Program-made: the position numbers and the translations under genes
Part shown: positions 14,402-35,300 of the stretch, in pieces
Layout: each line of letters starts with the position of its first letter
Numbering within the stretch: the first letter of the stretch is position 1
Notes under the pieces: generated by a model
Database searches by the model: none
What the model was told of the DNA's origin: nothing
What the model saw: only the letters and a program-made list of their open reading frames with translations
Assembly: GCA_016213845.1 (NCBI GenBank)
Contig: JACQZN010000082.1
Span: forward strand, 32,431 to 96,430
Reading direction: 5' to 3'
Length of the DNA: 64,000 nucleotides
From: Candidatus Wallbacteria bacterium
Lineage (GTDB): Bacteria > Muiribacteriota > UBA6191 > JACPRK01

Positions 14402-14544
14402 CGGTTTGAAAACCTCCTGGGCCGGCTTGCCACGATTGCCGGCTCGACACTTCGTAGCAGAGCGGCGCAGGCGGCGTCAACCGCGGTACCGACTGTGGGT
14501 GTGTCGGAAGGGCCGAATCGAGGGCAATCTCCTATAATGAAAGA

Positions 14545-15396
14545 GTGGACGGCGACGCGGACGGGCTGCGCGGGGCGTTTGCGGAGGCTGTCGGGTGCCG
14601 CGACGAGGCGATCGACCTGGCTCGCGCTGCGCTCTTGATCGCCCAGCGGGAGTATCGGGGGCTGGACGTCGGTGCCTACATGGCGCGGATTGACGGGATG
14701 GCGGACGCGATCCGGTCCCGGCTGCCCAGAGGTGCGCGCGCGGACCGGATCACCTCCGAGATGAACCGCTACCTCTTCGAAGAGCTGGGCCTCAAGGGCA
14801 ACGCGGCCGACTACTACGATCCGCGCAACAGCTTTCTGAACGACGTGATCGACCGGAAGCTGGGGATTCCCATCACGCTCTGCATTCTCTATATGGAGGT
14901 TGGCCGGAGGCTGGGTGTGCGGCTCGACGGGATCTCGTTTCCGGGCCACTTCCTGGTGAAGCTGCGGCTGCCCGACGGCGATCTCATCCTCGATCCCTAC
15001 CATCGGGGGATGGTGCTGGACGAGGACGCGCTGCAGCGGCAGATCGACGAGGCGCTCAGTCCGCTGCCGCCGGCCGAGGAGCGGGTGCAGAAGTGGCTCG
15101 TCTCGGCCACCAAGCGGGACGTGCTGGCCCGGATGCTGCGCAATCTGAAGGCGATCTACACCAGCGCCAACGACCTGGAGCGCGCGCTGGGCGCCGCCGA
15201 CTGGATACTGGTGGCGACGCCGGATGTGCCCGCTGAAGTCCGCGACCGCGCGACCCTGCACGACCGGCTGCAGCACGGGCCGGCCGCTTTGACGGACTAC
15301 GTGCGTTACCTGAAGCTGGCGCCCGACGCCGACGACACGGACGAAGTCCGGGCGCGCGTGGAGCAGCTGCGCAAGAGCTTCGGCGTGCTGAACTGA
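14545..15396 (+). CDS. SirB1-N/transglutaminase-like family protein (UPF0162)
   Basis: GTG start. Motif block NPLxL..ILYMEVGRRLGVRLDGISFPGHFLVKL..DLILDPYHRG resembles YchA/SirB1-family proteins. Confidence 0.6.
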   Translation: MDGDADGLRGAFAEAVGCRDEAIDLARAALLIAQREYRGLDVGAYMARIDGMADAIRSRLPRGARADRITSEMNRYLFEELGLKGNAADYYDPRNSFLNDVIDRKLGIPITLCILYMEVGRRLGVRLDGISFPGHFLVKLRLPDGDLILDPYHRGMVLDEDALQRQIDEALSPLPPAEERVQKWLVSATKRDVLARMLRNLKAIYTSANDLERALGAADWILVATPDVPAEVRDRATLHDRLQHGPAALTDYVRYLKLAPDADDTDEVRARVEQLRKSFGVLN

Positions 15397-15412
15397 GAGG
15401 AAGAGGGCGGGG

Positions 15413-17830: not shown

Positions 17831-17894
17831 GGTTCGATTCTACAGTCGACCGGCTTGCCATGCGGGCAGTGCTGCGGGTGTATGATGGCATGGG

Positions 17895-19064
17895 GTGGGG
17901 TTGGAGAAGCGCGACGTGCACCCATCGACGGATGGAGTTGGAAATGCCAGGCCGCGAATCCTGGTAGTGGACGACGATCCCGGCGTCCGGATGGTCCTGC
18001 GCGCTTACCTCGAAAACACCTATGAAGTAGTCGAGGCCGAAGAAGGGCAGCAGGCGCTGGACCTGATGCTGCAGCAATCGATGGACCTGGTGCTGCTGGA
18101 CGTCAAGATGCCGGGCATGTCCGGCTACGACCTGTGCCGGATGCTGAAGGGGCGTACGGCAGAGGAGTTTCTGCCGGTGCTGCTGCTGTCGGCGCTCGAT
18201 CAGCAAGAGAGCCGCAATGAGGGGCTTTCGGCCGGGGCCGACGACTTCCTCTCCAAGCCCGTCGATCGCCGGGAGCTCCTGCTGCGGGTGGCTGCGTTTC
18301 TGAAGATCCGGGAGCAGGCCGGACTCATCCGCAAGCAGCTGGCCGACCTGAAGCGGGTCCAGTATCTCAAGGACTACCTGTTCAAGCTGATCGTGCACGA
18401 CTTGCGGAACCCGCTGGCGAGCGTGGAAGGGTTCCTCAAGTTGCTGAAGGACGAACTGCCGGCCGGCTTCGAGCGGGAGCTGGGGAACTACCTGGATCGG
18501 GCGCTGGAGGGCACCGCGGATCTTTCGGAGATCCTGGAGGGCGTGGCCGAGGTCTACGTACTGGAAGAGGGCAAGAGGGCCCTGGCGCCGGAAGAGGTCC
18601 CGGTCAAGCTGATCCTCAACGAGGCGTCGCAGGCGATGGCCGGGGCCGCCGAACGGGTCGGGGCCGAGATACGGGTGGCGGTGGAAGGCGATCCCGTGTT
18701 GATGGTGGACCGGAAGCTGGCCCGGCGGTGCGTGGAGAACCTGATGGACAACGCGCTCACCTATTCCTGCGCGGATGATGCCGTGCTGGTGTTGGCGCGT
18801 CCCGAGGAGCGGGGGGCGGTGATTGAAGTGCTCGACAGGGGGCCCGGCATACCCGACGAACTGAAGGGATCGCTCTTCGAGAAGTTCGGATCGGTGGAGG
18901 GCTGGATGACCGCATCGAGACGCGGGGTCGGCCTGGGGCTGCACCTGGTGAAGCTGGTTGTGAGCGCGCACAACGGCACGGTCTCGGTGCACGACAGGGA
19001 GGGTGGGGGCAGCATCTTCCGGCTCTGGTTCCCGGGACCGGGCGGGGTTGGGAGTAGTCAGTAG
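17895..19064 (+). CDS. Hybrid response-regulator/histidine kinase (REC-HisKA-HATPase_c)
   Basis: GTG start. Receiver motifs ILVVDDDP..LVLLDVKMPGMSGY are present. The H-box is IVHDLRNPL. The G-boxes are LDRGPGIPDE and GVGLGLHLVK. It is divergent (65 bp) from the Ser/Thr kinase gene. Confidence 0.8.
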   Translation: MGLEKRDVHPSTDGVGNARPRILVVDDDPGVRMVLRAYLENTYEVVEAEEGQQALDLMLQQSMDLVLLDVKMPGMSGYDLCRMLKGRTAEEFLPVLLLSALDQQESRNEGLSAGADDFLSKPVDRRELLLRVAAFLKIREQAGLIRKQLADLKRVQYLKDYLFKLIVHDLRNPLASVEGFLKLLKDELPAGFERELGNYLDRALEGTADLSEILEGVAEVYVLEEGKRALAPEEVPVKLILNEASQAMAGAAERVGAEIRVAVEGDPVLMVDRKLARRCVENLMDNALTYSCADDAVLVLARPEERGAVIEVLDRGPGIPDELKGSLFEKFGSVEGWMTASRRGVGLGLHLVKLVVSAHNGTVSVHDREGGGSIFRLWFPGPGGVGSSQ

Positions 19065-19282: not shown

Positions 19283-20992
19283 CTAGAAGCGAACCTTGTA
19301 GTTGAGCTGGACCAGATCGTCGTCGACGTCCACGTTGTTCGTGGCGCCAGCGACGATGGCTCCGGCGGCATTGCGGACGCCGCCGCGGGCCTTGGTCTCG
19401 GGGGTCGAGTACTCCAGCTGCAGCATGCTGTTGGAGCTGACGTGGTGGTTCCACCCGACGGTCAGCACCTTGCCGGTGATCTCGGCGACGCCGAACTCGT
19501 CGCTCAGGTCCTCGTAGCGGACCGAAGCGTTGTTGTCGTCGCTGAACCGGTAGTTGACGAGCAGGCTGTAGGCGCGGCTCTCGACGCTGGGGTAGGACTC
19601 GGTAGCGAGGAGGGCCGGGTAGAGGCCGGCGGAGTAGCCGGCGGCGCCGAAGCCGACGCGAGCGGCGCCGACGGTGGCGGTGGCGCTGTCATTGGTGGCC
19701 TGGAAGTAGCTTCCCATGAAGCCCCAGTCCTCCCAGCCCCACCAGCCGGCGTTGAACTGCACGCCCTGCCAGGAGTTGCTGGCGACGGCGTCGGTGCGCA
19801 GGTCGGAGCCGCTGGTGAAGTAGCCGGCATCCCACCGGAAGCCGCCGTTGTACTTGTCGCCGGCCCAGGCGAAGGCGCCGATGCTGTCCTGGATCGCCGC
19901 GCCGGTGCCGTTGTTGTCGATGCTCTGGGGGCTGTCGCCGTAGACGGCCCTGCCGAGCGCGGCCGCGCCGCCCGAGAGCTGCCGCCAGGCCAGGAGTGAA
20001 CCGTCACGAGTGCTGCCGACGAACGGCGAGCTCGTGGCGCCGACCTGCCACTGGAAGCAGGAGTCCTTGGGCTGCCAGAGCGACGCGCCGACGTTGCGCA
20101 CGGCTTCCCAGGTTGCATCCTGGAAGGACGGGCTGATCGTCAGATCGAGCGACCTGGAGCCGAACCGGAGCTGGTTGGGGTAGTCGACCATCTCGGGATT
20201 GCGCTCCCGGGAGAAGGGAAGGGCGAACGTACCGACCTTGACGCGGACGTCGCCGTCGAGCAGCCAGCGCTCCATGTCGACGTAGGCCTCGTTGATCTGG
20301 ACGTTGTTGCCGCTGGCGAAGGCGCTGTCCTGGTCGGCGTCGAAGTCCATCTGGAGGTGCAGGTAGTAGTCGTCGTCGAAGTGCCGATCGAAGCTGACCG
20401 AGGTCTGCGCCATGTTGAAGAAGGTGCGGTCGGAGCCCTTGCCGGCGCCGCCATTCGGCACGCGGCCGATGTAGCGCTGGATGGGGCCCGTGGCGGCCGG
20501 AGCCGCGCCGCGGCCCTGGGCGCCCGTGGGGTCCTCACCGGTCATCACCAGGCGGCCTTGCAGCAACCCGCTGATCCCGGCCTTGGCGCCGCCGGCGGCG
20601 TAGTCCTTCTTGAGGCCGTCGACGTCCTTCTTCATGTCGGCCAGGCCTTCTTCGAGGCTGGAGACCTTCACGTTGAGGAGCGCCAGCTCGTCGGCGAACT
20701 CGATCACGAGCGCCTCGAGGTTCTGGATGTCCTTCTTGCTGTGCTTGCCGCCGCCCGAACCCATCTTGTCGAGCATCCGGGCGACGATGACGGCCATCTG
20801 GTAGCGCGTCACGGTCTTGCCGCCGCCGAACTTGCTGTCGTGCGTCGACATGATTCCGGCCTCGAGCGAGCGCTCGACGGCCTTGTAGGCCCAGTGGTCC
20901 TTCGGGACGTCCGAGAACGGGTTCGCCGCGAAGGCCGGTGTCGCCATCGACATGGCGAAGGCGACGATCATGGATTTGGTAAACCGCTTCAT
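19283..20992 (-). CDS. SLH-domain outer-membrane beta-barrel porin (OmpM/Slp/SomA-like)
   Basis: Start MKRFTKSM with GGAGG 7 nt upstream. The signal peptide is followed by an SLH domain (FSDVPKDHWAYKAVERSLEAGIM..TRYQMAVIVARML) and a coiled-coil. A roughly 350-aa barrel with alternating hydrophobic pattern ends in C-terminal Phe (LNYKVRF). Confidence 0.8.
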   Translation of the reverse strand: MKRFTKSMIVAFAMSMATPAFAANPFSDVPKDHWAYKAVERSLEAGIMSTHDSKFGGGKTVTRYQMAVIVARMLDKMGSGGGKHSKKDIQNLEALVIEFADELALLNVKVSSLEEGLADMKKDVDGLKKDYAAGGAKAGISGLLQGRLVMTGEDPTGAQGRGAAPAATGPIQRYIGRVPNGGAGKGSDRTFFNMAQTSVSFDRHFDDDYYLHLQMDFDADQDSAFASGNNVQINEAYVDMERWLLDGDVRVKVGTFALPFSRERNPEMVDYPNQLRFGSRSLDLTISPSFQDATWEAVRNVGASLWQPKDSCFQWQVGATSSPFVGSTRDGSLLAWRQLSGGAAALGRAVYGDSPQSIDNNGTGAAIQDSIGAFAWAGDKYNGGFRWDAGYFTSGSDLRTDAVASNSWQGVQFNAGWWGWEDWGFMGSYFQATNDSATATVGAARVGFGAAGYSAGLYPALLATESYPSVESRAYSLLVNYRFSDDNNASVRYEDLSDEFGVAEITGKVLTVGWNHHVSSNSMLQLEYSTPETKARGGVRNAAGAIVAGATNNVDVDDDLVQLNYKVRF

Positions 20993-21446
20993 CAAATTTC
21001 CTCCGTTGAGTGGCAAGCCCCTGGTCACGGAGTCGGCGGCGAAGTGTCCACGTTTCCTTCGGTCGCTTCGTCCTTCGAGAGGCTGGCGTTCATCATCGAT
21101 TGAGATTCCCGTGTGGTTTCCCTGGTTGGCTCCTGCCGGATTCATTGCTCACACCTCCTTTCACCGGCCGAATCGGATGGACCGACCCGGGTCGACGGCC
21201 CGGACCACGCGCAGTGAGTGCCATGGCCCTGTTGCCGTCGTGGGGTTCATTAATGAGGCTTGGCCCCCGCGTCAAAGCAGCGGCCAATCGAGCCAGTTCC
21301 GCGCCCCATGGAGGGCCCGGCCGCAAGCGGCATCGCCACGGGCACGACGCCGCGGACGGCACAAATCCGGCCGTTCGCGATGCGACCGCGTCTTCCCGGA
21401 TCGCCCCCGCGCCCCCCGGTTTTGATCGATTCCCCCCGAGGTTGGG

Positions 21447-22217: not shown

Positions 22218-22245
22218 GGCCGCGACTCTAGCATGGGATGGGAGA

Positions 22246-22460
22246 ATCGAGAATCGAGAATTGAGAATCGAGAATCGAGGAGTGAGAAGGGGGCGTCCTT
22301 CGACACGACCGCTTCGCGGTCTGCTCAGGATGAGCGGGGCTTCGACACGACCGCTTCGCGGTCTGCTCAGGATGACCCTTCGACAAGCTCAGGATGAGCG
22401 GGGCAGACGGGAGGTCGTGTCCCTGTTCCCTACTGGCTACTGACTACTGGCTACTCTCTT
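22246..22460. repeat. Divergent-promoter region packed with repeats: (GAGAATCGA)n, a 43-bp tandem duplicate with two small hairpins, CCTTCGACAAGCTCAGGATGAGCGG, reverse GTAGCCAGTAG and reverse GGAAGATGG modules
   Basis: Direct reading. The 43-bp unit cttcgacacgaccgcttcgcggtctgctcaggatgagcggggc is present twice in tandem. The GACCGC-ttc-GCGGTC palindrome lies inside each unit. Confidence 0.8.
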
Positions 22461-22591
22461 CCATCTTCCGCACCGCGGCCGCGCTGCTATGATGCTCCGG
22501 TGGCAGGCCGGGGCAGGCCTCGCCGCGCGGGCTAGATTCAGATGCGAAGGCTCCACCGGGTAGATTCACTCCTCCGAAAGGGGCGCAGGCC

Positions 22592-23359
22592 ATGTCGATG
22601 ATCCGGGTCGAGGCGCTCTCGAAGTCGTTCGCGGGTCGGCCAGCGGTCGACGGGCTCGAGTTCGAGGTCGGCCCGGGCGAGATCTTCGGGTACCTGGGGC
22701 CCAACGGGGCCGGCAAGACGACGACCCAGCGCCTGCTGATGGGGTTGCTCAGGCCGACGGGCGGCCGGGCATCCATCGGAGGGTTCGACATCGTCGAGCG
22801 CTCTCTCGACGTGCGGCGGATCACCGGGTTCATGCCCGACACGCCGTTCCTCTACGAGTTCATGACGGCCCGGCAGTTCCTCGGCTTCGTCGCGGAGGTC
22901 CACGAGCTGTCGCCGCGCGAGGCGGTCGGCGCCGTCGTGCCGCTGCTGGAGCGCTTCGAGCTGGCGGGGCGCCTCGACAGCCGGCTCTCCGGCTATTCGT
23001 GGGGAATGACCAAGAAGCTGACGCTGGCCGCGCTCTTGGTCGCCCGGCCGAAGGTGCTGCTGCTGGACGAGCCGACCACCGGCATGGACCCTCGCAGCGT
23101 GCGGGTCATGAAGGACCTCATCCGAGACCTGGCCCAGTCGGGCTCGACGGTGCTGCTCTCGACCCACACGCTCTCCGTGGCCGAGGAGCTCTGCCATCGC
23201 GTGGCGATCCTGCGGCAGGGGCGCATCATTGCCGTCGGCACACCCGCCGAGCTTCGGACCCGGGCGGGCGCGGCCGGCCGCGACCTGGAATCCGTATTCC
23301 TCCAGCTGACGGCCGAAGAGAGCTCGGCGGCCGGGGCGCCGGTTCTCGCGGGCAAGTGA
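22592..23359 (+). CDS. ABC transporter ATP-binding protein (ABC-2 type)
   Basis: Walker A GPNGAGKTT, a variant signature LSGYSWGMTKK, Walker B LLLDEPTTGMD, and an H-loop. Confidence 0.85.
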   Translation: MSMIRVEALSKSFAGRPAVDGLEFEVGPGEIFGYLGPNGAGKTTTQRLLMGLLRPTGGRASIGGFDIVERSLDVRRITGFMPDTPFLYEFMTARQFLGFVAEVHELSPREAVGAVVPLLERFELAGRLDSRLSGYSWGMTKKLTLAALLVARPKVLLLDEPTTGMDPRSVRVMKDLIRDLAQSGSTVLLSTHTLSVAEELCHRVAILRQGRIIAVGTPAELRTRAGAAGRDLESVFLQLTAEESSAAGAPVLAGK

Positions 23360-23360
23360 G

Positions 23361-25655
23361 ATGAGCGCCGTCCGCCTGGCCTGGGTCCGGCTGGCCGACG
23401 CCTGGGTGCGCATGATCGCCAGTTCTCGCCCCTGGGTCCTGGCGGCGTACAGCGTCTTCTTGCCGGCCTTCTGGATAGGCTGCATGCGGCTGGCGCCCGA
23501 GCTGTACGCGGCGCTCGAGGCTTACGACGGCCGGTTCCTGGCGCCGTTCCTGGCGGCGCTGGCGCCGTGCCTGTGGCTGCTCCTGTTCTCGCAGCGCATC
23601 TACCAGATGCCCAGCCGCACGGGGGCGTGGCTCACGCACGACTTTCACTTCCTCCTCGGGATGCCACTTCCGCTGGGCCGGGTGATGCTGGCGGCGGCGG
23701 CCGTCTGGACGCTGGGGGACTTGCCGGTCATCCTGAGCGCAGCTGCTTTGATGGCCGGGTTCCTGAAAGCGATCCGGGCTACCGCCGCTCTGGGGCTGGT
23801 GGTTGCCGTCCTTGCCCTCTGGATGGTCGGGGCGGTCTTCCTGGCCCTCGGCGTGGGGCGTCTACTGTTCCACCGCTTCCACGAGCCGCGCCACCGGCTG
23901 GCGATGGCGGTTCTGGCGTCCCTTGCTGCCTTGCTGGTCTGGTCGGGGGCGGGCGAGGGGCCCGCGATCGATCGCCCTGAGCTTGCGCTGGCCTGGCTCG
24001 AGCGCCCGGTGCCGGCGACGGAGCCGACGCTGCTGGAGAGAACCGTCGTCTCCCTGGAGCCGCTGCTGACGACGCTCGAGCGGCTCAGGCCTCTTGCGCA
24101 GGTGTTTCCGCCGTACCAGCTCTACCTGGGTGCCGAGCGGATCGCCCGCGGCGACGCGGTCGGGTGGTGGAGGCTGCTGGCGGTGGCGGCCTTGCTGGGC
24201 GTCGTGACGCTCGGATTGCTGGCGCTCCTGGAGCCCTTCTCGCGGCGCGACTGGCTCGCATTGACCTGCCCGTCGCCGGAGGATTCGGAAGATGCGTCGG
24301 GTCGAATAGAAGTATTCTCGGACCGCCGAGTTACGGGGCTCGACGCCAAGGAGCTCGCCCTCTGGGGCCACTTCTGGGCGGGTCCGCTGGCGCTGGCGGC
24401 GGCCACCGGCTGGACCACCTGGTACCTCCTGGACAAGGGGTACTCCGTGCTGGCGGCGGCCAAGCTCCTGGGGATGGCCACCTGGATGGTCGGTAGCCTG
24501 GCGGGCGACTCGCTCTCCTGGGAGCGGCGCGGGTTGACTCTCTGTCAACTCCTGCCGCTGACACCGGGGCAGATCCTGGCGGCGAAGGCCCGGTGGGCCG
24601 CGCTGGTGGGCGTGGCCAGCCTGGTCGTCCCGTTTGCGCTGGTCGGAATCCTGGCCGACGCGGAGCCGTTCGCGGAGCTGGTCCGTGGCGTGCTCGTGCT
24701 GACCTTCCTCGTCTTCACGGCGGCCTTCGCAGGGGTCGCGATCGGGGCGCTTCTGCGCGACCTCTCGGGCCAGGGACAGCCTGGCATGGGGCCGCTTCTC
24801 GGCGCGCTGATGTGGCTCGGGCTCTGCGCGGCAATGGTGGCGCAGGTCTTCTTCACCAGCGGCTACGCCATCTTCGGAGGCCTCTTCTTCGACCTGCTGC
24901 TGGTGCTGGCCCTCTGGCAGCGCGCGTGCGTCCAGCTGGCGCACCAGCATGAGCTCGAGGAAGTCGCCAATGACCAGACCACCTTCGCCGATTCCGTCGT
25001 GGTCTTCCTTTTCGCCTATCTGCTGGTCGCCGTCGTCGCGCTGAAAGCGCAGGCGATGGGGGCCGGCACGGCGGCGGTCAACGCGCTGCGCGCCTACCTG
25101 CTGACGGCGCTCTTCCCGGTCGTGCTGGCCGGGCTCACGTGGGTCCACCTGCGCGTCCTGCGGGCACCGCTCGAGCAACCTGCGCCCGGGGGGCGCTGGA
25201 AGGACGTGGCGCTGGCCCTCGGACTCGCCGGATGCACCGTCTCTCTTTCGCTAGCCTACAGCTGGGCCGTGGCGCGCCTGGGTTGGGTCCGCACGTCGGA
25301 TCTCTCGGCCGGCGTCCAGCTGCTTCGCGGCCTGCTGAAGGACCTGCCGATGGCCCCGCTGCTGGTCTTCGGGCTGATGGGCGTGCTGGCGCCGCTGGCC
25401 GAGGAAGGCTTCTTCCGCGGGCTGTTCTACCAGGGCATCCGCCGGCTGCAACCGCACGACTACCGCATCGCCGTGCTCGCCAGCGCGCTGGCCTTCGGCC
25501 TGCTGCATCCCGCGGTCCACTTCCCCGTGCTCTTCGCCATGGGCACTGCGCTGGCCCTGCTCGTCGAGTGGCGAGGGTCGCTCTTCCCGGCGATGCTGGC
25601 GCATGCGCTCCACAACTCGGCGATGGTCCTCCTCTACCTGCGAGGGGGCTCCTGA
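23361..25655 (+). CDS. Polytopic membrane protein (about 12-14 TM) with a C-terminal CPBP/CAAX-protease (Abi) domain
   Basis: It starts 2 nt after the ABC ATPase stop. The hydrophobicity pattern runs through the whole 764 aa. The C-terminus carries all three CPBP motifs: LAEEGFFRG (EExxxR), FGLLHP (FxxxH) and HALHNS (HxxxN). Confidence 0.75.
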   Translation: MSAVRLAWVRLADAWVRMIASSRPWVLAAYSVFLPAFWIGCMRLAPELYAALEAYDGRFLAPFLAALAPCLWLLLFSQRIYQMPSRTGAWLTHDFHFLLGMPLPLGRVMLAAAAVWTLGDLPVILSAAALMAGFLKAIRATAALGLVVAVLALWMVGAVFLALGVGRLLFHRFHEPRHRLAMAVLASLAALLVWSGAGEGPAIDRPELALAWLERPVPATEPTLLERTVVSLEPLLTTLERLRPLAQVFPPYQLYLGAERIARGDAVGWWRLLAVAALLGVVTLGLLALLEPFSRRDWLALTCPSPEDSEDASGRIEVFSDRRVTGLDAKELALWGHFWAGPLALAAATGWTTWYLLDKGYSVLAAAKLLGMATWMVGSLAGDSLSWERRGLTLCQLLPLTPGQILAAKARWAALVGVASLVVPFALVGILADAEPFAELVRGVLVLTFLVFTAAFAGVAIGALLRDLSGQGQPGMGPLLGALMWLGLCAAMVAQVFFTSGYAIFGGLFFDLLLVLALWQRACVQLAHQHELEEVANDQTTFADSVVVFLFAYLLVAVVALKAQAMGAGTAAVNALRAYLLTALFPVVLAGLTWVHLRVLRAPLEQPAPGGRWKDVALALGLAGCTVSLSLAYSWAVARLGWVRTSDLSAGVQLLRGLLKDLPMAPLLVFGLMGVLAPLAEEGFFRGLFYQGIRRLQPHDYRIAVLASALAFGLLHPAVHFPVLFAMGTALALLVEWRGSLFPAMLAHALHNSAMVLLYLRGGS

Positions 25656-27577
25656 TGCGCGCCCGGACGCGCCGCCGCGCCCTGGCCCTGGGCGCTGCGC
25701 TCTGGCTGGCCTGGGGACCGGCGGCAGTGGCCTCGGAGTCGTCTCGCCGCTACGCCGTCCAGCAGAGCCTGGCCGCCGGTCGCTTCGCCTCGGCAGCCAC
25801 GGCAGTCTTGGACGAGGGCGCCGCGCCGCTGCCCTGGCTCAGACGCCAGCTCTTCGACATCGCCAGCGCGCGCGCTCCCGCCGATCCGCTCGTCCTCAGG
25901 CTGCGCGAGCCCGGTGCCCTGGGCAGGCCCGTGGCCACGCTGCTGCCCCAGCCCGACCGCTCCACGCCCTCCGTCGTGGAGATGGCCGGTGCCTGGGCCC
26001 TGCAGCCCGACTCGCCCCAGGCGCGCGAGCGGCTTGCGTGGTGGCTGGAACTGGCCGACAACCATCAGTTCGAGCTGGCAGTGGAGCTGCCGCTGGCGTC
26101 GGCGCGCAAGCCGACGCTGCAAGAGACCCGAGCGATGCTTTGGCTCCTTTCCGCGCGCCTGGAGGCCCTCGAGCGCCGCGACTCCGCGGATTTCGAGCGC
26201 TGCCTGGCCCGCGCCGCCCGCGAAGGCGCGCCGCTGCCGGCCGCCTGGTTCGAACTGGCAGGCGCTGGCCCTGCCTTCACGACGCATCTGGAGCGCGCCA
26301 GGGAGGCCTTGCGCGCCGGGGACCGAGGGCCGGCACGGTCTCTCTTCCGCGAAGCTTGCGAGGCCAGCTGCCGCGCCCGCGACAGCGCCCGGCCCGTCAC
26401 CGCGCTGGTCCGCGAGGCCCGGGCCGAGTTCCCCGGCGACGAATGGTTCGTCGCCTTCGAGGCCGCGCTCTACTGGCGGGCCGGCCGCGCCATGCCCCAG
26501 CGCGCCCGGTGGTGGACACTCGCCGCCGCGGCGGCTTTGGCCCGGGGCGAGGGCACCGAAGCGGCCAGACGATTGCGCGCCGGGCGGGGACTGCTCGAGG
26601 CGCTGGCCCCGGGCCGCGAGGACTGGACCCCCTGGATCTGGGCCGCCGAGCGGCTTATCCAGGGGCCGGCGCCGCTGCCCGCCAAGACACAGTCCCTTCT
26701 CGAGCTGCCTCCGGGCCGGTCTCTGGCCTACATCCTCCCTGACGAGGCCTTCAACTACGCGATGGCCCAGCGTTGGCTGGAAAGGGCCCGCGAGCTGGGC
26801 GACCCCAGGCTGGTCCTGCGCATGCAGATCGACCCCGATCGCCCCGGCGAGGGCCCCCTGGTTTTCGCCGAGGAGCTCGTCCGGCGCGGCAAGTTTCTCG
26901 ACGCCGCCGAGACGCTCGCCTCGGTGCCTTACCTCTTCAGCGAGGCCGCGGGCGCGGAGGTCCGAGAGCGTGCCGAGGCGTGCGAATCGGCCGCGCAGAA
27001 GGGCATCCCGACTCTCCTCGGGCCCGGCCGGGAGGAGCTTGCCCGGCTGTATGTAGCGATGCTGCTAGCGACGCGCCGCTGGCAGGAAGCGCACGCTGCG
27101 CTCGCCGCACTGGTCGCGCAGTTGCCGCAGGACGCGACCGCCGCCGGGGGCAGTCGTCCGGCGCCGGAAGGGGACCAGGCTTCCGCCGAGAATCCGCCCG
27201 ACGGTCTCGAAGCGGACTCACGAGATCCGGTGCCGGGCGCGCTGCGACTGCTGGCCCGGAGCCGTTACACGCAGCTGCTCGCCCGGCTCGACGCCCTCTC
27301 GAACCGGCCGGCCGCCGCAACAGGCGGGACGGGTGCCACCGGAGGCCCGGACCTGCCTGCGTCCCCGCTTCTCGGCCTCAAGCGGGCTCCCGGTGAGGCA
27401 AAGACGACGCCGGATTCGCCCTACGGAGGCGCCATGGGGCCGGCCGAGCGGCGGTCCTTCCGGCTCGGCATCGTCGCCGTGCTGCTGGCGGCCTGGACGC
27501 GCCTGCACCTGTACCTGTTGGCCATTTTCCTCCCCGGGGGCGCTTTCTTCCGCTGGTTGCGCGCGCGACGGCCGTGA
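25655..27577 (+). CDS. Secreted Ala/Leu/Arg-rich alpha-helical (TPR-like) protein with a C-terminal TM anchor
   Basis: The ATG overlaps the upstream stop (TGATG). The signal peptide is MRARTRRRALALGAALWLAWGPAAVASE. The C-terminal hydrophobic segment is LGIVAVLLAAWTRLHLYLLAIFLPG. No catalytic motif was recognised. Confidence 0.55.
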   Translation: MRARTRRRALALGAALWLAWGPAAVASESSRRYAVQQSLAAGRFASAATAVLDEGAAPLPWLRRQLFDIASARAPADPLVLRLREPGALGRPVATLLPQPDRSTPSVVEMAGAWALQPDSPQARERLAWWLELADNHQFELAVELPLASARKPTLQETRAMLWLLSARLEALERRDSADFERCLARAAREGAPLPAAWFELAGAGPAFTTHLERAREALRAGDRGPARSLFREACEASCRARDSARPVTALVREARAEFPGDEWFVAFEAALYWRAGRAMPQRARWWTLAAAAALARGEGTEAARRLRAGRGLLEALAPGREDWTPWIWAAERLIQGPAPLPAKTQSLLELPPGRSLAYILPDEAFNYAMAQRWLERARELGDPRLVLRMQIDPDRPGEGPLVFAEELVRRGKFLDAAETLASVPYLFSEAAGAEVRERAEACESAAQKGIPTLLGPGREELARLYVAMLLATRRWQEAHAALAALVAQLPQDATAAGGSRPAPEGDQASAENPPDGLEADSRDPVPGALRLLARSRYTQLLARLDALSNRPAAATGGTGATGGPDLPASPLLGLKRAPGEAKTTPDSPYGGAMGPAERRSFRLGIVAVLLAAWTRLHLYLLAIFLPGGAFFRWLRARRP

Positions 27578-29301
27578 GCAATTGCGGGCGCGCGGCCCGG
27601 CTGCTACGATCCCGAGCCATGGCTCGACTGATCGTGAGACGGGGGCCGCGTGCTGGTTACTCCTATCCGGTCGACGACAAGACCGTGACCATCGGCCGGG
27701 ACCCGGCGCGGACAGTGCCGATCCTCGACGGGAAGGTCTCGAGGCTCCACGCCGAGATCGTGCCGACCGCCCATGGCTGGATGGTCCGTGACCTGGGCGC
27801 GACGAACAAGACTTACGTCAACGGCCGGGCCGTGACGGAGGCGCTGCTGGCGTTCGGCGACGCGATCTCGATTGGCGAAACCGAGTTCGTCTTCGAGGCC
27901 GACGAGATGGACCTGCCCGGCCCGCCCGATCTGACGGTCGTGGTCACGGCGGAGTCCGTTCCGGCCGGGGGCGTCACTCTGCCGATGCCTCAGCCCGGAT
28001 TCGAGGACTTTCTGCCGTCTGCGCCCGCCGCCGAGTCCGACGAGCTGGCCCGCCGTCAGGCGCGCCGGCTGAAGGTGCTCTGGCGCGTCTCGCGCACGGC
28101 TTTCGTGAAGAGCGATCTGGCGACCTTCCTGGAAGAGATCCTGACGCTCGTGCTGGGCGAGCTCGAGGCCGACACGGCGGTTTTCCTCCTCGCCTCCGAG
28201 GGCGCCAAGCTCACTCCCATCGTGACTCACCGCGCCCGGGGCGCCAGCGCCGAGCCTGCGATCGTCCTGACCTCCACCGTGGTCAATCGGGTCTTCGCAT
28301 CCGGGGACGCGCTGCTGGTCGCCGACGCCGCCAAGGACCTGTCGGGCGCCGCGAGCGTGCGGGCGCAGCGCATCAGCTCCGTCATCTGCGTGCCGCTCAA
28401 GAGTCCTGAAAAGACCTACGGAGTCTTTTACATGGATCGGCGCTCCGGCGGGGCCTGGTTCGATCACGAGGACCTGAGCTTCCTGGCCACCGTCTGCGCG
28501 CACGTGGCCGTCAACATCGAGAACCTGGCGCTCTACCAGAAGCAGCGGGAGGCCTACGAACGGCTCAAGCTGGCCCAGGAGCAGCTCCTGGCATCCGAGA
28601 AGATGAGCGTGCTCGGACGGCTCGCCGGTTCCGTTGCACACGAGCTCAACAATCCGCTGCAGTGCATCCTGATGTGCTCCGAGCTATTGAAGGACGAGCT
28701 GCGCCTGCGAGGCACCGTCGTCAATCCGGCGACGGCGCTCGACCAGCTCGAGATGGTCCACCACTCCGTGGCGCGCTGCTCCAGGCTGGTCCAGAACCTG
28801 CTCCACTACTCGCACAAGGGTGACACCGCCGGGCTCGTGTCGCTCCCGCTGGCCCGGCCAGTCTCCGAGGCCGTCAAGTTGATGACCTATCTGGTCCGCA
28901 AGCGAGGCATCGAGATCGCTACCGACCTGCCGCCGGACTTGCCGTCCATCCTCGGCAACGGCTCCGAGCTGGAGCAGCTGTTCATCAACCTCATCAAGAA
29001 CTCGGCCGACGCCATCCCGGGCAAGGGCAACATAGCAGTCTCGGCCTCGCTCGAGCCGGACTGCATCGAAGTGCGCGTGACGGACAGTGGCGGGGGAATC
29101 CCGCCGGAGACGTTGCCGCACATCTTCGAGGAGCTGTTCACGACGAAGCCGATCGGCGAGGGAACGGGATTGGGCTTGCCGCTCTGCAAGCGAATCGTCG
29201 AGAACCACGGGGGCACCATCGAGGTCGAGAGCCGGGTCGGCGCCGGCACGACGGTGACGGTCCGGTTCCCGTTGACCGGCAGCGCGTCGGCCGTTGCCTG
29301 A
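27574..29301 (+). CDS. FHA-GAF-histidine kinase (cytoplasmic sensor kinase)
   Basis: The GTG overlaps the upstream stop (GTGA); an alternative ATG lies at 27619. FHA domain (TVTIGRDPARTVPILDGKVSRLHAEI...NKTYVNG), GAF-like middle region, H-box SVAHELNNPLQ, N/G boxes (LIKNSADA, DSGGGIP, GTGLGL). Confidence 0.75.
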   Translation: MSNCGRAARLLRSRAMARLIVRRGPRAGYSYPVDDKTVTIGRDPARTVPILDGKVSRLHAEIVPTAHGWMVRDLGATNKTYVNGRAVTEALLAFGDAISIGETEFVFEADEMDLPGPPDLTVVVTAESVPAGGVTLPMPQPGFEDFLPSAPAAESDELARRQARRLKVLWRVSRTAFVKSDLATFLEEILTLVLGELEADTAVFLLASEGAKLTPIVTHRARGASAEPAIVLTSTVVNRVFASGDALLVADAAKDLSGAASVRAQRISSVICVPLKSPEKTYGVFYMDRRSGGAWFDHEDLSFLATVCAHVAVNIENLALYQKQREAYERLKLAQEQLLASEKMSVLGRLAGSVAHELNNPLQCILMCSELLKDELRLRGTVVNPATALDQLEMVHHSVARCSRLVQNLLHYSHKGDTAGLVSLPLARPVSEAVKLMTYLVRKRGIEIATDLPPDLPSILGNGSELEQLFINLIKNSADAIPGKGNIAVSASLEPDCIEVRVTDSGGGIPPETLPHIFEELFTTKPIGEGTGLGLPLCKRIVENHGGTIEVESRVGAGTTVTVRFPLTGSASAVA

Positions 29302-30202
29302 GGAAGGAGTGGGCATGAGGGACGGTCTACTGTCACGAGGCCGGCGACTGGCCGGGACACTGCTGGTGCTCTCGGTGCTCGGCACCTGCCGGGCCGATGC
29401 GGCAAGCTGGATCTCCAACCCCCGACCGCGGGCGTCGCAGCAGCGCGTGGCGCCCTGGGTCATCGCTCATCGCGGCGCCAGCGCGGACTTCCCCGAGAGC
29501 ACGATGCTGGCCTTCCGCGAAGCGATTCGCGCCGGGGCCGATGCCATCGAGCTCGACTGCCAGACCACCTCCGACGGCAAGCTCGTCGTCCTGCACGACG
29601 ACCTTCTGGATCGCACAACCGACGGCCGCGGGCCCGTGTCGGCCCTGAGCTGGGCCCAGGTGGAGCGGCTCGACGCCGGCCGCTGGAAGCACGCCCGGTT
29701 CGCGGGCGAGCGCGTGCCGACCCTGGAGCAAGTCGTCAGGTTGGCGATGACCGAGAACGTCGGGCTCGTCATAGAGGCGAAGACTCCCTACATCCTCGAC
29801 CCCGGGCTCGCCGGACGCATCCTGGAGCTGCTGGACCACGAGGGGGCCACTTCCCGCACGATCCTGCAGTCGTTCGACCATCGGCCGCTGACCGAGATTC
29901 ACGCGCGGCGGCCGGAGGTGAAGCTGGGCCCCCTGGTCGACGCCGGGATCGACGACGTCCGGGCGATGCTGGCGGCCGCCGGCACCTGGGCCTACCTGCC
30001 GCACTATGGCTTCATGCTCCCCGACCGTGTGCGCGCCGCGCATCGGCTCGGCTATCACATCGCGGTCTGGACCGTCGACCGCCCCGAGCACATGCTGGCG
30101 ATGACCGCCGCTGGCGTCGACGGCATCATGACGAACCGGGCCGGCACCTTGCGCCGCTTGCTCGACGGCCTTCGACTGCCGCGCCGGCCGTGGCCGCGCT
30201 GA
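29294..30202 (+). CDS. Glycerophosphodiester phosphodiesterase (GDPD family), secreted/lipoprotein
   Basis: Motif block VIAHRGASADFPESTMLAFREAIRAGADAIELDCQTTSDGKLVVLHDD. The signal peptide ends LGTC. An alternative start lies at 29315. Confidence 0.8.
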   Translation: MPEEGVGMRDGLLSRGRRLAGTLLVLSVLGTCRADAASWISNPRPRASQQRVAPWVIAHRGASADFPESTMLAFREAIRAGADAIELDCQTTSDGKLVVLHDDLLDRTTDGRGPVSALSWAQVERLDAGRWKHARFAGERVPTLEQVVRLAMTENVGLVIEAKTPYILDPGLAGRILELLDHEGATSRTILQSFDHRPLTEIHARRPEVKLGPLVDAGIDDVRAMLAAAGTWAYLPHYGFMLPDRVRAAHRLGYHIAVWTVDRPEHMLAMTAAGVDGIMTNRAGTLRRLLDGLRLPRRPWPR

Positions 30203-31631: not shown

Positions 31632-32306
31632 ATGGGTGAGCTGATCCGGTTCTCGCGCCCCGATGGCCAGGAGTGCCCGGGGTATCTGGCCACGCCGGCG
31701 GCCGGCGGCGACGCGCCCGGCATCGTCGTGATCCAGGAGTGGTGGGGCCTCAACGACCAGATCCGGGGCGTTGCGGACCGGTTTGCCGCCGCGGGCTATC
31801 GGGCGCTGGTGCCGGATCTCTATCGCGGCCGGGTCGCCGCCACTCCCGACGAGGCCAACCACATGATGAGCGGGCTCGACTGGGGCGCCGCGACGGTGCA
31901 GGACGTCCAGGGCGCCGTGCACCATCTGGGGCGCGGCGGCCGGCGCGTCGCGGTCCTGGGCTTCTGCATGGGCGGGGCGTTGACGCTGCTGGCCGCGGCG
32001 AAGGTCTCGGGGGTCACCGCGGGCGTCTGCTTTTACGGCATCCCGCCCGAGAGCGCCTGCGACTTTGCCTCCATCCGGGTGCCGCTCCTGTTGCACTTCG
32101 CCGAGCACGACGACTGGTGCAACGCCGCGGCCGTGGACCAGCTGGCCGCCCGTCTGACCGCTGGGCGAGTGCCGCACGACCTTCACCGCTACGACGCCCA
32201 GCACGCCTTTTTCAACGAGCAGCGCCCCGAAGTCTACGACGCCGCCACTTCGAAGCTGGCCTGGGACCGCTCGTTGCAGTTCCTCGCAAGAGAGCTGGGT
32301 GCGTGA
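31632..32306 (+). CDS. Dienelactone hydrolase family protein
   Basis: Start MGELIRF with an AAGGAG RBS. Motifs GIVVIQEWWGLNDQI and GFCMGG (nucleophile Cys), plus a C-terminal His. Confidence 0.8.
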   Translation: MGELIRFSRPDGQECPGYLATPAAGGDAPGIVVIQEWWGLNDQIRGVADRFAAAGYRALVPDLYRGRVAATPDEANHMMSGLDWGAATVQDVQGAVHHLGRGGRRVAVLGFCMGGALTLLAAAKVSGVTAGVCFYGIPPESACDFASIRVPLLLHFAEHDDWCNAAAVDQLAARLTAGRVPHDLHRYDAQHAFFNEQRPEVYDAATSKLAWDRSLQFLARELGA

Positions 32307-32358
32307 GCCGCTGCCGGCGGTACCCACCGCCGGCCCGCGGAGAGGAGCCGTGAGAACC

Positions 32359-35300
32359 ATGAGGCCACCGGCGATCGGACCGGACCGCGTACGGCCCATC
32401 GAGCGGCCCTGGGGAGCCTTCGACCTGTCCCGCGCTGGCGTCGTTGCCCGCTGGCTTTGCCTGGCCGGCTTCCTGGCGATAGCCTCGAGCGCCTCCGGTC
32501 AGCCCAACCCGCAGGTCGTCGCCATCTCCGCGCCGGCGCTCGCGGCGAGCTCGGACTCGGCGCCGGTGACCGTGACGGTGAGAAACGCCGGCTCCTCGGC
32601 CACGGAGGCCCCCGTTCGCGTCGGGCTCCTGGCCGTGAGCGCCGGGACCAGCGGAGTCGCTTCCTCTGCTGAGTTCGATGACTCCATCGAGGCGAGCGAG
32701 CCGCTGGCGCCCGGCGAATCGCGCGACTTCGAGACCCGGGTGCGCGTCCTGCTACCGGCCGGCTCGGCCAGGCTCGCCGCCTTCGTCGATCCGCAGGGCG
32801 AGCTGGAAGAGTCTGACGAGACCGACAACGATTTCGTCGGCGACGCCGTCCTGCAGGTCGTCGACCCGACGGGCAACCTGGTCGTCGACGGCCTGGAGCT
32901 CCCGGGTTCGGCGTCGCTCGGCGAATCGGTGCCTTTGACCGTCACGGTCCGAAACGCGGGGACCGGTCCGCTCCGATTCTCCTCCGGGTTCGCCGTGGTG
33001 CTCTCGACGACCACCGCCCCCGGACCCGGGGCCATCGTCGTCAACTACGGCCGCGGTGTCGAAGCTCTCCCGGCCGGCGCCCGCGCGACGGACTCCCTGC
33101 GCTTCACGGTTCCGCTCGGCATCGAGCCGGGACGCTACTACGTGGTCCCGATTGCGGACTACAATCGAGAAGCCGGCGAGACCAGCGAGAGCGACAACGC
33201 CCTCCAGGCGCGTTCGATCGACCTCTCCACTCCGACGGTAGATCTGACCGTCGACGCTGTCGACGCACCCACTGCCATTCCCGTGGGCCGCCCTTTCCAG
33301 GCCACGGTGGACCTTTCCAACGGCGGGACCACGGCCGCTTCGATGCCGTTCGTGCTCTCGATCGTAGTGACGCGCGATCTGACCTCCACGGACACGGAGC
33401 CCTCCATCGGCTCTCGGACCATCGACGCGCTCGCCGCGGGCGGCTCGCTCTCCACGACCGTCGCCTGCCGCGTGCCCGCCACGATTGCCCCGGGCGACTA
33501 CGCGCTGTCGGCGCTGGTCGACGCCGACGCACTCTACGGCGAGCTCGACAAGGCGAACAACCGCCGCGCCTCTTCCGGCGGCCTGGCGGTGTCCACGGCG
33601 GACGTCGACCTGACCATCGAGGCAATCCGGGTCCCCACCGGCGGCGTCATCGGCGGGCCCGTCCGAGCCCGTTTCTCCGTCTCCAACCTGGGAACCGGCG
33701 CTGTGCCAGAGGCTTTTTACGTCGGCTTCTACCTCTCGACGGACGGCGAGCGGAGCGACACGGACGCGTACCTTGGCGAGCGATACGTCGAGAGCCTGGA
33801 GGGCGGCCAGACCACGACCTTCACCGCCGAGAGCCGGCTCCCGCTGGCCCTGACCAGCGGCGCCTACTTCTACCTGGCGGTGGCGGACCGGGACCACGGC
33901 ATCGACGAGGAGAACGAGTCGAACAACCTCTCCGCCACTCCATTCAGTGCCCGCGCCTCGCGCATCGATCTGGTGCCGGTGGCCGTGACAGCGCCGGCCT
34001 CGGGCGCGCCCATGGAGTTCGTTCCGCTGTTCGTGAGCGTCGAGAACCGCGGCACGGACGATAGTCCGCCTTTCCTGGTCCTGTTCTCGGCCTCCCCGGG
34101 GCCCGTACTGACGGACACGGCGATCCTGATCGGCCAGTCCTACTTCACGCAGGGGGGGCTGGCGGCGGGGGAGCGCCGACTGGAGGGTCCGTTTTTCGCC
34201 GACGTCCCCGAGGGCACGCCGGAAGGCTCCTATACCCTGTTTGCCACCGTGGACCAGGATGATCGCGCTTCCGAGTCGAACGAGTCGAACAACAATCTGG
34301 CTGCCGTGGCGCCCTTCGCCATCACGACGGCAGCTTCGAGCGTCGATGACCACCCGGACGCCTACACCCTGACTCGCCCCTCCGAGGACCTGCTCCCGGG
34401 CGATGGACGGCCCGTGCTGGCACGGCACGAGCGCGTCCGCGACGTCGACTTCTTCCGCTTCCAGGCCGGCGCCGGCGACCAGATCGTCCTGGACGTCTTC
34501 GGCCAGCCCAGCTCCTTCGTCGACACCTTGGTGGAGCTTTTGGGTCCTGACGGAAAGCAGCTCGGTTCCAACGACAACTTCGGCGACATCAGCCGATCGC
34601 GCGTCGGTCCGATCGCCGCACCCTCCACCGGCACGTACTTCGTCGCGGTGCGGGAGACCCAGCCATTCGGTCAGGGACCGTACGTCCTGAGGGCCCGGCT
34701 CGAGCGCGGGCAGCCCGACCTGACGGTGGCGGTCTCGCCCCCCGCTCCGGCCAGTGTCCCGCAGGGCCTGCGGTTCCGCACGACGGTCACGGTCTCCAAC
34801 GTCGGACAGGCGATTGCGCTCGGTGGCGCCAAGGTGAAGCTTTTCCTTTCGGCCGATTCCGCCATCACGACAAGCGACATCGCAGTCGGCGAGGTCGAGG
34901 CGCCCGACCTTCCCGCGGGCGCTTCCGTGCGACGCGCCGCCGAGCTGTTGGCGGACGGCTTCGAGGCCGATCCGGGATCCTACTTCGTCGGCGCCATCGC
35001 CGACCCGGGCCGTGCCGTCCCACAGACCAATTTCGCCAACGACGTCGCCGTGGCGCCCACACGGCTCACCGTCACCCAGGCACCCGATGATCACCCGGGC
35101 CGCGCGGCCCTGACCAGGCCCCTCGAGGACGGCCTGACGCTCGACGGCGACTGGGTCTACGCCCGAGTGGAGCGACCCGGCGACGAGGACTTCTTCCGCT
35201 TCGACGTGCTGGCCGACCAGATCTACATGGTCGAGACCCTTCCCGGCACGCTGGCCACGCGCCACTTGACCGTCTTCCGCGACGGCGAAATCGACGTCGC

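Follow-up and report, generated by a model that had tools for sequence, protein, structure and literature searches.

Prokaryotic CPBP (Rce1-like) intramembrane proteases are abundant and almost entirely uncharacterised, and the first sorting function in the family, that of a myxosortase, was reportedly shown only in 2025. We analysed a locus in which a protease domain of this kind is fused to a large membrane protein and encoded next to an ATP-binding cassette (ABC) ATPase. It lies in a 64,000-nucleotide (nt) stretch of DNA from Candidatus Wallbacteria bacterium (GenBank assembly GCA_016213845.1, contig JACQZN010000082.1, positions 32,431 to 96,430 of the forward strand). This whole stretch is called the window below, and positions are counted from its first letter. 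The architecture type is already catalogued, because the NCBIfam family NF041647 ('ABC transporter permease subunit/CPBP intramembrane protease', a 636-amino-acid model) likewise joins an ABC permease to a C-terminal CPBP domain in one chain and is the best match of the protease core found here. A reading of the locus made from the sequence only, without database searches, had not recognised it as a described system; this was too strong, NF041647 being a curated family already. We know of no experimental study of NF041647, and of no proposed substrate or mechanism for ABC-permease/CPBP fusions.

Two other described systems place a CPBP protease near a secreted protein with a signature motif, a transmembrane (TM) helix and an Arg-rich tail at its end. 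MrtX cleaves MYXO-CTERM tails, as determined experimentally (PMC11980579), and MrtJ is predicted to be a dedicated CPBP enzyme, adjacent to a single JDVT-CTERM client in 16 of 17 cases (bioRxiv 10.1101/2023.06.07.544157). Our locus has a similar pairing, and its layout of one enzyme and one adjacent candidate client is that of JDVT-CTERM/MrtJ; MrtJ is also the second-best NCBIfam match of the protease core. It differs from both systems in that the tail lacks Cys and has charged residues in its TM helix, in that the core reaches 35 bits against a MrtJ cutoff of 75, and in that an ABC-type domain shares the protease's chain and an ATPase accompanies it.

CPBP/Abi proteins are also known to control histidine kinases, namely SpdC for WalK (PMC5854430) and Abx1 for CovS (PMC3578759), and a CPBP-fold membrane protein linked to a histidine kinase is proposed here too. 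The kinases of SpdC and Abx1 are membrane proteins contacted in the bilayer, whereas the kinase at our locus is soluble and the CPBP catalytic residues are all kept. A link between FHA domains and an ABC-2 exporter is known from Rv1747/PknF of Mycobacterium tuberculosis (PMC3138270), where an ABC-2/ABCG-like exporter with a Ser/Thr kinase encoded nearby is tied to FHA-phosphothreonine recognition. The Rv1747 transporter itself contains the FHA domains, whereas at our locus the domain stands at the head of a histidine kinase encoded separately, and a phosphorylated transporter is a hypothesis. Among ABC-2 exporters, YbhFSR and YhhJ/RbbA of E. coli and the GldAFG system have a similar DrrA/GldA/NodI-like ATPase. 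GldAFG also has a large, doubly anchored periplasmic protein (GldG) beside its permease, as gene 3 stands here, although the two are unrelated in sequence. Compared with these exporters, our locus gives no significant match to an ABC2_membrane model, has its permease halves apparently fused, and encodes an ATPase with Asp in the Q-loop and an S-W-G-M signature.

The locus is a five-gene operon kept in four lineages of one rare high-GC groundwater clade, represented by metagenome-assembled genomes (MAGs) labelled Ca. Wallbacteria or Cloacimonadota; on the evidence of the databases, it is restricted to these lineages. We interpret it, with a probability of about 0.4, as a machine that uses ATP and its CPBP domain to process or release a single client, with a kinase wired to it through phosphothreonine and an FHA domain. 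The type of fusion being known, what is new is this version of it, with its orphan N-terminus, and its possible client.

Organization and conservation of the operon

The operon encodes an ABC-2-type ATPase (22592-23359, 255 amino acids, aa), a membrane protein of 764 aa (23361-25655, the fusion protein), an exported and anchored helical protein (25655-27577, 640 aa, referred to as gene 3), a soluble FHA-GAF histidine kinase (ending at 29301) and an exported glycerophosphodiester phosphodiesterase (GDPD, 29315-30202), all on the plus strand. The sequence-only reading had listed the first four. Their open reading frames (ORFs) are real and intact at the coordinates it gave, except that the kinase start has to be moved. 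The operon has five genes rather than four, since the co-oriented GDPD gene follows 13 nt past the kinase stop, with a strong Shine-Dalgarno sequence (GGAAGGAG). GDPD is the last gene of the operon; the next gene downstream is convergent. At the upstream boundary, a divergent intergenic region of 374 nt separates the ATPase gene from an alpha/beta hydrolase gene on the minus strand.

The first three genes are packed most closely. ATPase and fusion genes are separated by a 1-nt spacer (TGA, one base, ATG), not by the 2-nt gap reported earlier, and the fusion and gene 3 share the expected TGATG overlap, in which the gene-3 ATG lies. The kinase had been given a GTGA overlap, with a GTG at 27574 that would overlap the gene-3 stop. 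However, the kinase of the 72% homologue begins at an ATG equivalent to that at 27619 (MARLIVKRGP there, MARLIVRRGP here), so the kinase most likely starts at 27619, after a 41-nt gap, and the GTG is probably not a start. Tight translational coupling is therefore supported for genes 1, 2 and 3; the proposed co-translation of all four genes does not extend to the kinase.

The fusion protein had only four database relatives in a word-indexed search: a Logan assembly at 100% identity and contigs at 72%, 57% and 67%, the last a partial sequence from JGI. A scan of GTDB representatives gave three loci, including a 96% relative. Three relatives are used for comparison below, namely L001 (72%, a Ca. 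Wallbacteria MAG), L002 (57%, a MAG labelled Cloacimonadota) and L004 (96%). The fusion ORF is uninterrupted in the Logan assembly and in the MAG contigs at 96, 72, 67 (partial) and 57% identity, so that five independent assemblies from four lineages all keep it intact. Within the window, where G+C is about 69%, third-codon-position GC is 0.86-0.93 in each of the first four ORFs, and the frame plot is continuous over the entire 764-aa ORF, so that it contains no frameshift. The concern that the fusion might be an assembly or frameshift artefact was not borne out.

The gene neighbourhood is syntenic in the relatives as well. The L001 contig has the order ATPase, fusion, gene-3 homologue (807 aa), FHA-GAF kinase and GDPD. 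On the 67% contig the fusion is followed, with a 4-nt overlap, by a clear gene-3 homologue. The L002 contig carries a NACHT protein, a stand-alone response regulator, the ATPase, the fusion and, overlapping the fusion stop with its start, a gene for a signal-peptide protein, after which the contig ends. In each of the four lineages, the start of gene 3 and the stop of the fusion gene overlap.

Purifying selection acts on every segment. We computed the ratio of nonsynonymous to synonymous divergence (dN/dS) against L004, segment by segment, dividing the N-terminal part of the fusion protein into two blocks, N1 and N2. The ratio was 0 for N2 (0 nonsynonymous and 30 synonymous changes) and for the kinase (0 and 33), 0.03 for the CPBP domain (3 and 38), 0.12 for N1 (28 and 73), 0.13 for the ATPase (15 and 39) and 0.27 for gene 3 (107 and 134).

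Divergence between the window and L004 is mosaic. The kinase (27619-29055, against L004 14259-15695) is identical in 479 of 479 residues, with a synonymous divergence (dS) of only 0.09, while gene 3 is 86% identical with a dS of 0.31 and N1 92% identical with a dS of 0.34. This suggests either recent recombination over the kinase or faster change in gene 3 and N1.

The CPBP domain of the fusion protein

Hydropathy and predicted helices gave the fusion protein the following layout: an amphipathic N-terminal helix, N1, an acidic linker, N2 and a CPBP domain of seven helices. The CPBP/Rce1-like glutamic intramembrane protease domain, with about seven TM helices, covers residues 532-764 (24954-25655). 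Its PF02517 match (64.7 bits against a cutoff of 22.4, residues 665-753) was the only Pfam match in gene 2. The three motifs of the family are intact, as had been noticed from the sequence: EEGFFR at 681-686 (nt 25401-25418; E681-E682-x3-R686), FGLLH at 712-716 (nt 25494-25508; F712-x3-H716) and HALHN at 748-752 (nt 25602-25616; H748-x3-N752). The residues of EExxxR, FxxxH and HxxxN are invariant across all homologues, contrary to one of the outcomes that would have refuted the sequence-only reading, and the domain is predicted to be protease-competent, given intact motifs under strong constraint.

The general architecture agrees with that of NF041647, a polytopic ABC-partner domain being followed by a C-terminal CPBP domain and the gene standing next to an ABC ATPase gene. 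The fusion protein is not a member of that family, however: its 64.6 bits fall well short of the cutoff of 435, and the alignment is confined to model positions 413-634. The N-terminal part of NF041647 is about 410 aa long, whereas that of the fusion protein is about 530 aa, comprises two 6-TM blocks and has no detectable homologue beyond its own tiny family; at the sequence level the two permease parts are unrelated. When the 100-residue CPBP core was compared with the NCBIfam CPBP models, NF041647 ranked first with 58.4 bits; further scores were 35.1 for MrtJ, 29.0 for pepcterm_CAAX, 27.3 for MroQ, 27.1 for MrtS and 26.9 for the VPEID-CTERM exosortase/protease. Apart from MroQ in fifth place, ranks 2 to 8 were taken by protein-sorting families (MrtJ, pepcterm_CAAX, VPEID-CTERM exosortase/protease, MrtS, Mrt core and MrtA).

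Wider searches with the CPBP domain returned generic proteins. A scan of JGI metagenomes gave 40 loci; in every one the CPBP protein, of about 220-480 aa, stands alone, and no ABC gene is directly adjacent; three of them have ABC ATPase genes within a few kb, and the set is uninformative on the fusion. The word-indexed search found weak generic matches only, and a tblastn search of plasmids for an NF041647 member to compare likewise found generic CPBP matches only.

The gene-3 protein and its C-terminal tail

The candidate client is the 640-aa product of gene 3, which has a signal peptide, a helical domain and a C-terminal tail. Signal peptide cleavage is predicted at about AVA/SE (residues 24-28). 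The periplasmic domain is predicted to be all-alpha and composed of short helix pairs of the helical-repeat type, and a Pro/Ala/Gly-rich linker at about 490-570 is poorly conserved and predicted to be disordered. Gene 3 had been called a secreted TPR-like protein. The signal peptide supports the first word; the TPR label found weak support (TPR_19 at E=0.15, and TPR_16 at E=0.0019 in the 807-aa homologue, within an insertion), and the C-terminal TM anchor had been overlooked. The protein matched no Pfam or NCBIfam family, and the word-indexed search gave three matches. An AlphaFold2 model built from three sequences was all-alpha but unusable, with a predicted local distance difference test (pLDDT) score of 48; its top Foldseek matches were TPR solenoids, at sub-threshold values (E of at least 0.006, TM-score of at most 0.2).

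The tail has the tripartite format of CPBP-processed tags at the extreme C-terminus of the protein. It begins with the motif PLLGLKR..TTPDSPYGGA (residues 571-593, nt 27365-27433), continues with a TM helix (604-632, 27464-27550) and ends in the basic cluster RWLRARRP (27551-27574); written in full, it reads PLLGLKRxPxxAxTTPDSPYGGA...RRxFRLGIVAVLLAAWTRLHLYLLAIFLPGGAFFRWLRARRP. This is the best conserved portion of gene 3, with 72-73% identity to a homologue that is 54% identical overall, compared with 25-63% elsewhere in the protein. In the 86% homologue, 39 of 40 residues of the TM helix and basic end are the same. The full tail was seen in three sequences only. A tail hidden Markov model (HMM) found no second tail-bearing protein among all ORFs of the window and the relative loci (about 64 kb of genome), which fits a one-client system. 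The overlap of the gene-3 start with the stop of the CPBP-encoding gene, conserved in four lineages, likewise fits a dedicated enzyme-client pair.

The N-terminal part of the fusion protein

N1 (residues 1-320, 23361-24320) has about six predicted TM helices, with an acidic loop of 70 aa between the fifth and the sixth, and N2 (residues 321-531, 24321-24953) is a compact 6-TM block. N2 is the best-conserved portion of the fusion protein, with 84, 76 and 100% identity to L001, L002 and L004. The N-terminal part is a sequence orphan, as neither profile nor family searches found anything significant outside its own family. When a profile of residues 1-562 was run exhaustively with HMMER over 1.84 billion cluster representatives, its own family was all that came back, so the alignment could not be deepened. 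N1 and N2 gave no significant Pfam or NCBIfam match, the N-terminal pieces alone had no NCBIfam match at E<=10, and searches of PDB sequences with N1 and N2 profiles stayed at chance level.

Resemblances to ABC-2 permeases were seen below the level of family detection. The ABC-2 TM2-TM3 motif, placed within six TM helices, has the pattern E-R/K-x-G-T-x-x-x-L-L-x-x-P-h-T/S-x-x-x-h-h-x-x-K. N2 carries SWERRGLTLCQLLPLTPGQILAAK (386-409, nt 24516-24587) between its second and third TM helices, which is similar to the motif that YbhR and YbhS (REWERGTMEALLS...) of E. coli have there; within the N2 motif, PLTPGQILAAK lines up with a YbhR segment, and the TM order agrees with that of YbhR as well. 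In type V exporters, the ATPase docks on a coupling helix formed by the TM2-TM3 segment. The top Pfam match of N2, though non-significant, was ABC2_membrane_3, with residues 396-481 aligned in matching register to model positions 192-280. The N2 profile scored 11.9 bits against YbhR, a value reached by none of 1000 composition-preserving shuffles (maximum 9.8). We kept the empirical p<0.001 from this shuffling and set aside the HMMER E-value of about 1e-5 as over-optimistic. A comparison by hhalign of N2 with a YbhR/YbhS/YhhJ/RbbA profile gave P=0.0067; the 82 aligned columns keep the same register and are 37% identical.

N1 is proposed to be a degenerate ABC-2 half-permease, from its helix boundaries, hydropathy and a weak YhhJ match. 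Its candidate motifs are FLLGMPLPLGRVM (97-109) and LLVWSGAGEGPAIDRPEL, which align in equivalent register with HLLVMPITPFEIM and, later, QMLSGGSTPRESMPQM of YhhJ (empirical p about 0.02). A comparison of N1 with N2 by hhalign revealed no significant internal duplication (P=0.74), and the reading as two halves therefore depends on the ABC-2 resemblance of each. Taking the motif similarities together with the ABC-2-type ATPase and the lack of another permease candidate in the operon, we infer that N1 and N2 may be two fused, strongly diverged ABC-2 half-permeases.

The acidic linker between N1 and N2, cytoplasmic in the topology predicted from hydropathy, contains T325-G-L-D328 (24333-24344), which is invariant in three full-length homologues. 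FHA domains, such as FHA1 of Rad53, bind pTxxD sites, and we hypothesise that TGLD is a candidate FHA ligand of this type.

The ABC ATPase

The product of gene 1 matched ABC_tran (PF00005) with 81.5 bits against a cutoff of 25. Its best NCBIfam sub-family models were DrrA, RbbA, GldA and NodI, all below their equivalog cutoffs; by these matches it belongs to the ABC-2 exporter group, in line with the earlier assignment. Walker A (residues 36-44), Walker B (156-161) and the H-loop (190-194) were located. In the Q-loop, Asp83 replaces the canonical Gln (GFMPDTP, nt 22826-22846), and the signature is YSWGM (nt 22994-23008), not LSGG(Q/M); E. coli YadG, for comparison, has PQE and LSGGM. Both deviations are shared by the 57% relative, where the signature is FSYGM, and so they are family traits rather than errors. 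With such non-canonical motifs, the enzyme might hydrolyse ATP slowly or work as a switch.

In the 57% lineage the ATPase ORF (L002 3722-4831) has 369 instead of 255 aa, with about 115 additional low-complexity residues rich in Ser, Thr, Pro and Glu before the fusion gene. This putative extension would be a plausible target of phosphorylation and FHA binding.

The FHA-GAF histidine kinase and the GDPD

The kinase (27619-29301) has 560 aa if it starts at the ATG, and the domain order FHA-GAF-HisKA-HATPase_c. The FHA domain (PF00498, 38-101) scored 52.1 bits against a cutoff of 20.7, HisKA 40.4 against 26.9 and HATPase_c 99.3 against 26.4; the GAF domain lies at 181-315. The phosphothreonine-binding residues of the FHA domain are intact (G26-R27, S41-x-x-H44 and N63..N68-G69, these being numbered from the ATG at 27619), and the H-box HELNNP and the G1/G2 boxes DSGGGI and GTGLGL are present. 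The protein has neither a TM segment nor a receiver domain. Being soluble, it must receive its input from partners. No cognate response regulator is encoded in the operon.

An FHA domain heading such a kinase had been described as uncommon. It is, but it has a precedent in EspA of Myxococcus xanthus (NF052573), the second-best NCBIfam match, which likewise combines an N-terminal FHA domain, sensory domains and a HisKA/HATPase core. The kinase here scored 164.7 bits against the NF052573 cutoff of 1400, has GAF in place of PAS and lacks a receiver.

Receiver (REC) genes occur elsewhere. A stand-alone REC gene precedes the ATPase gene in L002, and the window has REC genes at 14015-14476 and 17895-19064, with no shown link to the kinase.

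The last gene of the operon encodes a GDPD of 295 aa with an N-terminal signal peptide. GDPD follows the kinase in L001 too. Its presence hints at glycerophosphodiester chemistry in the envelope.

Possible function of the operon

In the explanation we favour, the 764-aa protein would be a complete ABC-2 (type V-like) transmembrane unit, consisting of two diverged 6-TM halves and a CPBP protease, with two ATPase copies docked on the TM2-TM3 motifs. Sec would export the gene-3 product, whose conserved tail would then anchor it in the inner membrane. The CPBP domain would cleave this tail, by analogy with MrtX and MrtJ and their tripartite C-terminal tags. Movements of the ABC-2 unit powered by ATP might feed the anchor to the protease, expel the products, or both, and the periplasmic helical-repeat domain would thereby be released or relocated. 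The kinase may be recruited through its FHA domain to phosphothreonine, perhaps at the invariant TGLD of the N1-N2 linker, and might report or control the state of the machine. An ATP-driven membrane complex with a built-in protease, as the sequence-only reading had suggested, is still the natural interpretation, because the ATPase is of ABC-2 type and gene 2 is the sole candidate permease in the operon, although the permease identity of the N-terminus shows only as a weak, register-consistent similarity.

If the client relationship is true, intramembrane proteolysis and an ABC motor can be linked mechanically, and C-terminal sorting signals extend beyond the Cys-containing types. The locus is a compact case in this respect, with a candidate client in overlap with the protease gene, an energising ATPase and a kinase with a docking hypothesis. 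Should the relationship fail, the locus would still be a clean example of a sequence-orphan ABC-2-like domain missed by current profile libraries. A more far-reaching version, which we consider improbable as a whole, is an undescribed, Cys-independent C-terminal sorting or release system, in which an ABC-2 unit would be fused to a CPBP 'sortase', ATP hydrolysis would power both the extraction and the cleavage of one client's anchor, the kinase would be coupled through TGLD and FHA, GDPD would act on a glycerophospho-linked intermediate or product, and the N-terminus would represent an orphan ABC-2 branch.

Several results weigh against the favoured explanation. Cleavage of gene 3 is a proposal that draws on the tag format and gene adjacency. 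To our knowledge, all four described CPBP-processed tags (MYXO-, JDVT-, Synerg- and CGP-CTERM) have an invariant Cys; there is none in the last 75 residues of gene 3 in three homologues, and the gene-3 tails matched no CTERM model in NCBIfam at E<=10. The conserved W-T/V-R-L-H inside the TM helix is atypical of sorting signals and could equally mean subunit docking. We also know of no described sorting system that uses an ABC transporter. The ABC-2 assignment of N1 and N2 is statistically weak, since about ten comparisons were made and shuffled sequences reach 9.8 bits against the observed 11.9; the ABC2_membrane_3 match of N2 stays below the family cutoff (E 0.5-0.8, 9-10 bits against 31.6). 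The AlphaFold2 model of the fusion protein, from an alignment of four sequences, had a pLDDT of 40 and was unusable, and a Foldseek search of the PDB with it found nothing. Normal ATPase turnover is not assured, given Asp in the Q-loop and Trp in the signature. The kinase is coupled more loosely, across its 41-nt gap, and the operon encodes no partner response regulator. With only three to five homologous sequences in existence, arguments from conservation have little power.

We therefore weighed four other explanations. A doubtful but possible one is that the operon encodes an ABC-2 exporter in which gene 3 is an uncleaved, anchored periplasmic auxiliary subunit similar to GldG of GldA/GldF/GldG. 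Its substrate might be a lipid or glycerophospho envelope molecule, which would explain the GDPD, and the CPBP domain would act on the substrate or another protein, or have an acyl-transfer or structural role. The high scores of the ATPase on the GldA, NodI and DrrA models agree with this, as does GDPD being a conserved operon member; the charged W-x-R-L-H in the gene-3 TM helix suggests specific helix-helix contacts, and the fastest evolution being in N1 and gene 3 is compatible with co-evolving contact surfaces. Members of the CPBP family can also have roles other than proteolysis, LnsB reportedly taking part in lipoprotein N-acylation (PMC7387801). On the other hand, gene 3 lacks similarity to GldG/ABC_transp_aux or any family, the full catalytic motif set is strongly constrained, a disordered variable linker before a conserved tail is typical of cleavable tags, and no substrate-synthesis genes lie nearby. 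It seems somewhat less probable again that the operon serves mainly signalling, the ABC/CPBP protein being a sensor or regulator of the soluble kinase and gene 3 a periplasmic ligand-binding or scaffold part. SpdC, Abx1 and the flux-sensing BceAB-type ABC transporters, which likewise control kinases, are analogous, and a kinase with neither a TM segment nor a periplasmic sensor needs an input partner. The intact FHA residues and the invariant cytoplasmic TGLD also point in this direction, as do the kinase following gene 3 in two lineages, a response regulator preceding the ATPase in a third, and a Ser/Thr kinase gene 5 kb upstream. However, the kinases that SpdC and Abx1 contact by TM segments are membrane proteins, whereas this one is soluble, the kinase junction is not translationally coupled, and the protease motifs and ATPase point to enzymatic work beyond regulation alone. 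This signalling role is compatible with the ATP-driven processing machine and not exclusive of it.

The suggestion that the locus is a self-immunity and export module for a secreted peptide or toxin, as in the Sag, Pln and Skf clusters, appears very unlikely. The CPBP family does include bacteriocin immunity and processing proteins, which ABC transporters accompany in clusters of Firmicutes, and MroQ is among the weaker NCBIfam matches. However, we found neither a conserved precursor-like small ORF upstream nor modification enzymes among the neighbours, which are an alpha/beta hydrolase, an SLH porin-like protein, GDPD and an amidohydrolase. No PADLOC or defence match went beyond the generic ATPase, and the organism is diderm-like (SLH/porin, MacB-HlyD). 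A fortuitous neighbourhood or a chimeric fusion is effectively refuted. The homologues all come from MAGs or short contigs of close lineages, at 57% identity or more, so that synteny could partly reflect recent ancestry; against this stand the uninterrupted ORF in five independent assemblies, the continuous third-position GC, dN/dS far below 1 in every segment and the conserved overlapping stop and start codons.

Promoter region and genomic neighbourhood

The divergent intergenic region upstream of the operon (22218-22591) is packed with tandem repeats. GAGAATC occurs five times at 22242-22279 (5.4 copies), CTACTGG 3.7 times at 22430-22455, and an exact 42-nt unit, CTTCGACACGACCGCTTCGCGGTCTGCTCAGGATGAGCGGGG, twice with a partial third copy at 22298-22375. 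The 42-nt unit contains the palindrome GACCGC-TTC-GCGGTC, with 6-bp arms, and is found nowhere else in the window. The repeats recur in the 96% relative (L004 8840-9240), where their copy numbers differ. They may serve as arrays for regulator binding or as an element of variable expression. No sigma-70 consensus promoter and no notable terminator were found at the operon.

A signalling cluster lies upstream, at 14015-19064. Two of its genes are on the minus strand, that of the stand-alone receiver (14015-14476) and that of a Ser/Thr protein kinase of 808 aa (15413-17839); the third, on the plus strand, encodes a REC-HisKA-HATPase hybrid kinase (17895-19064). These genes are candidate partners of the FHA kinase; the arrangement is not kept in the 57% lineage. 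Between the genes of the SLH protein and the alpha/beta hydrolase, outside the operon, Rfam placed an archaeal C/D-box small RNA (sR-tMet) at 21166-21228, most likely by chance (32 bits against a gathering threshold of 50, E=0.008).

Downstream, a 1946-aa ORF (32299-38139) has six CARDB repeats and PKD-like and PPC domains, and probably encodes a giant surface or adhesion protein; its C-terminus is unlike the gene-3 tail. A second, unrelated ABC system at 48315-53190 comprises a 939-aa HlyD-type adaptor, a MacB-type ATPase and a MacB_PCD/FtsX permease, and is followed by another HlyD-like gene (54506-55921). The SLH-domain protein upstream of the operon (19283-21145, minus strand, 620 aa) has a weak match to the 'somb' iron-uptake porin family. 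This outer-membrane anchor type points to a diderm envelope with SLH-tethered porins.

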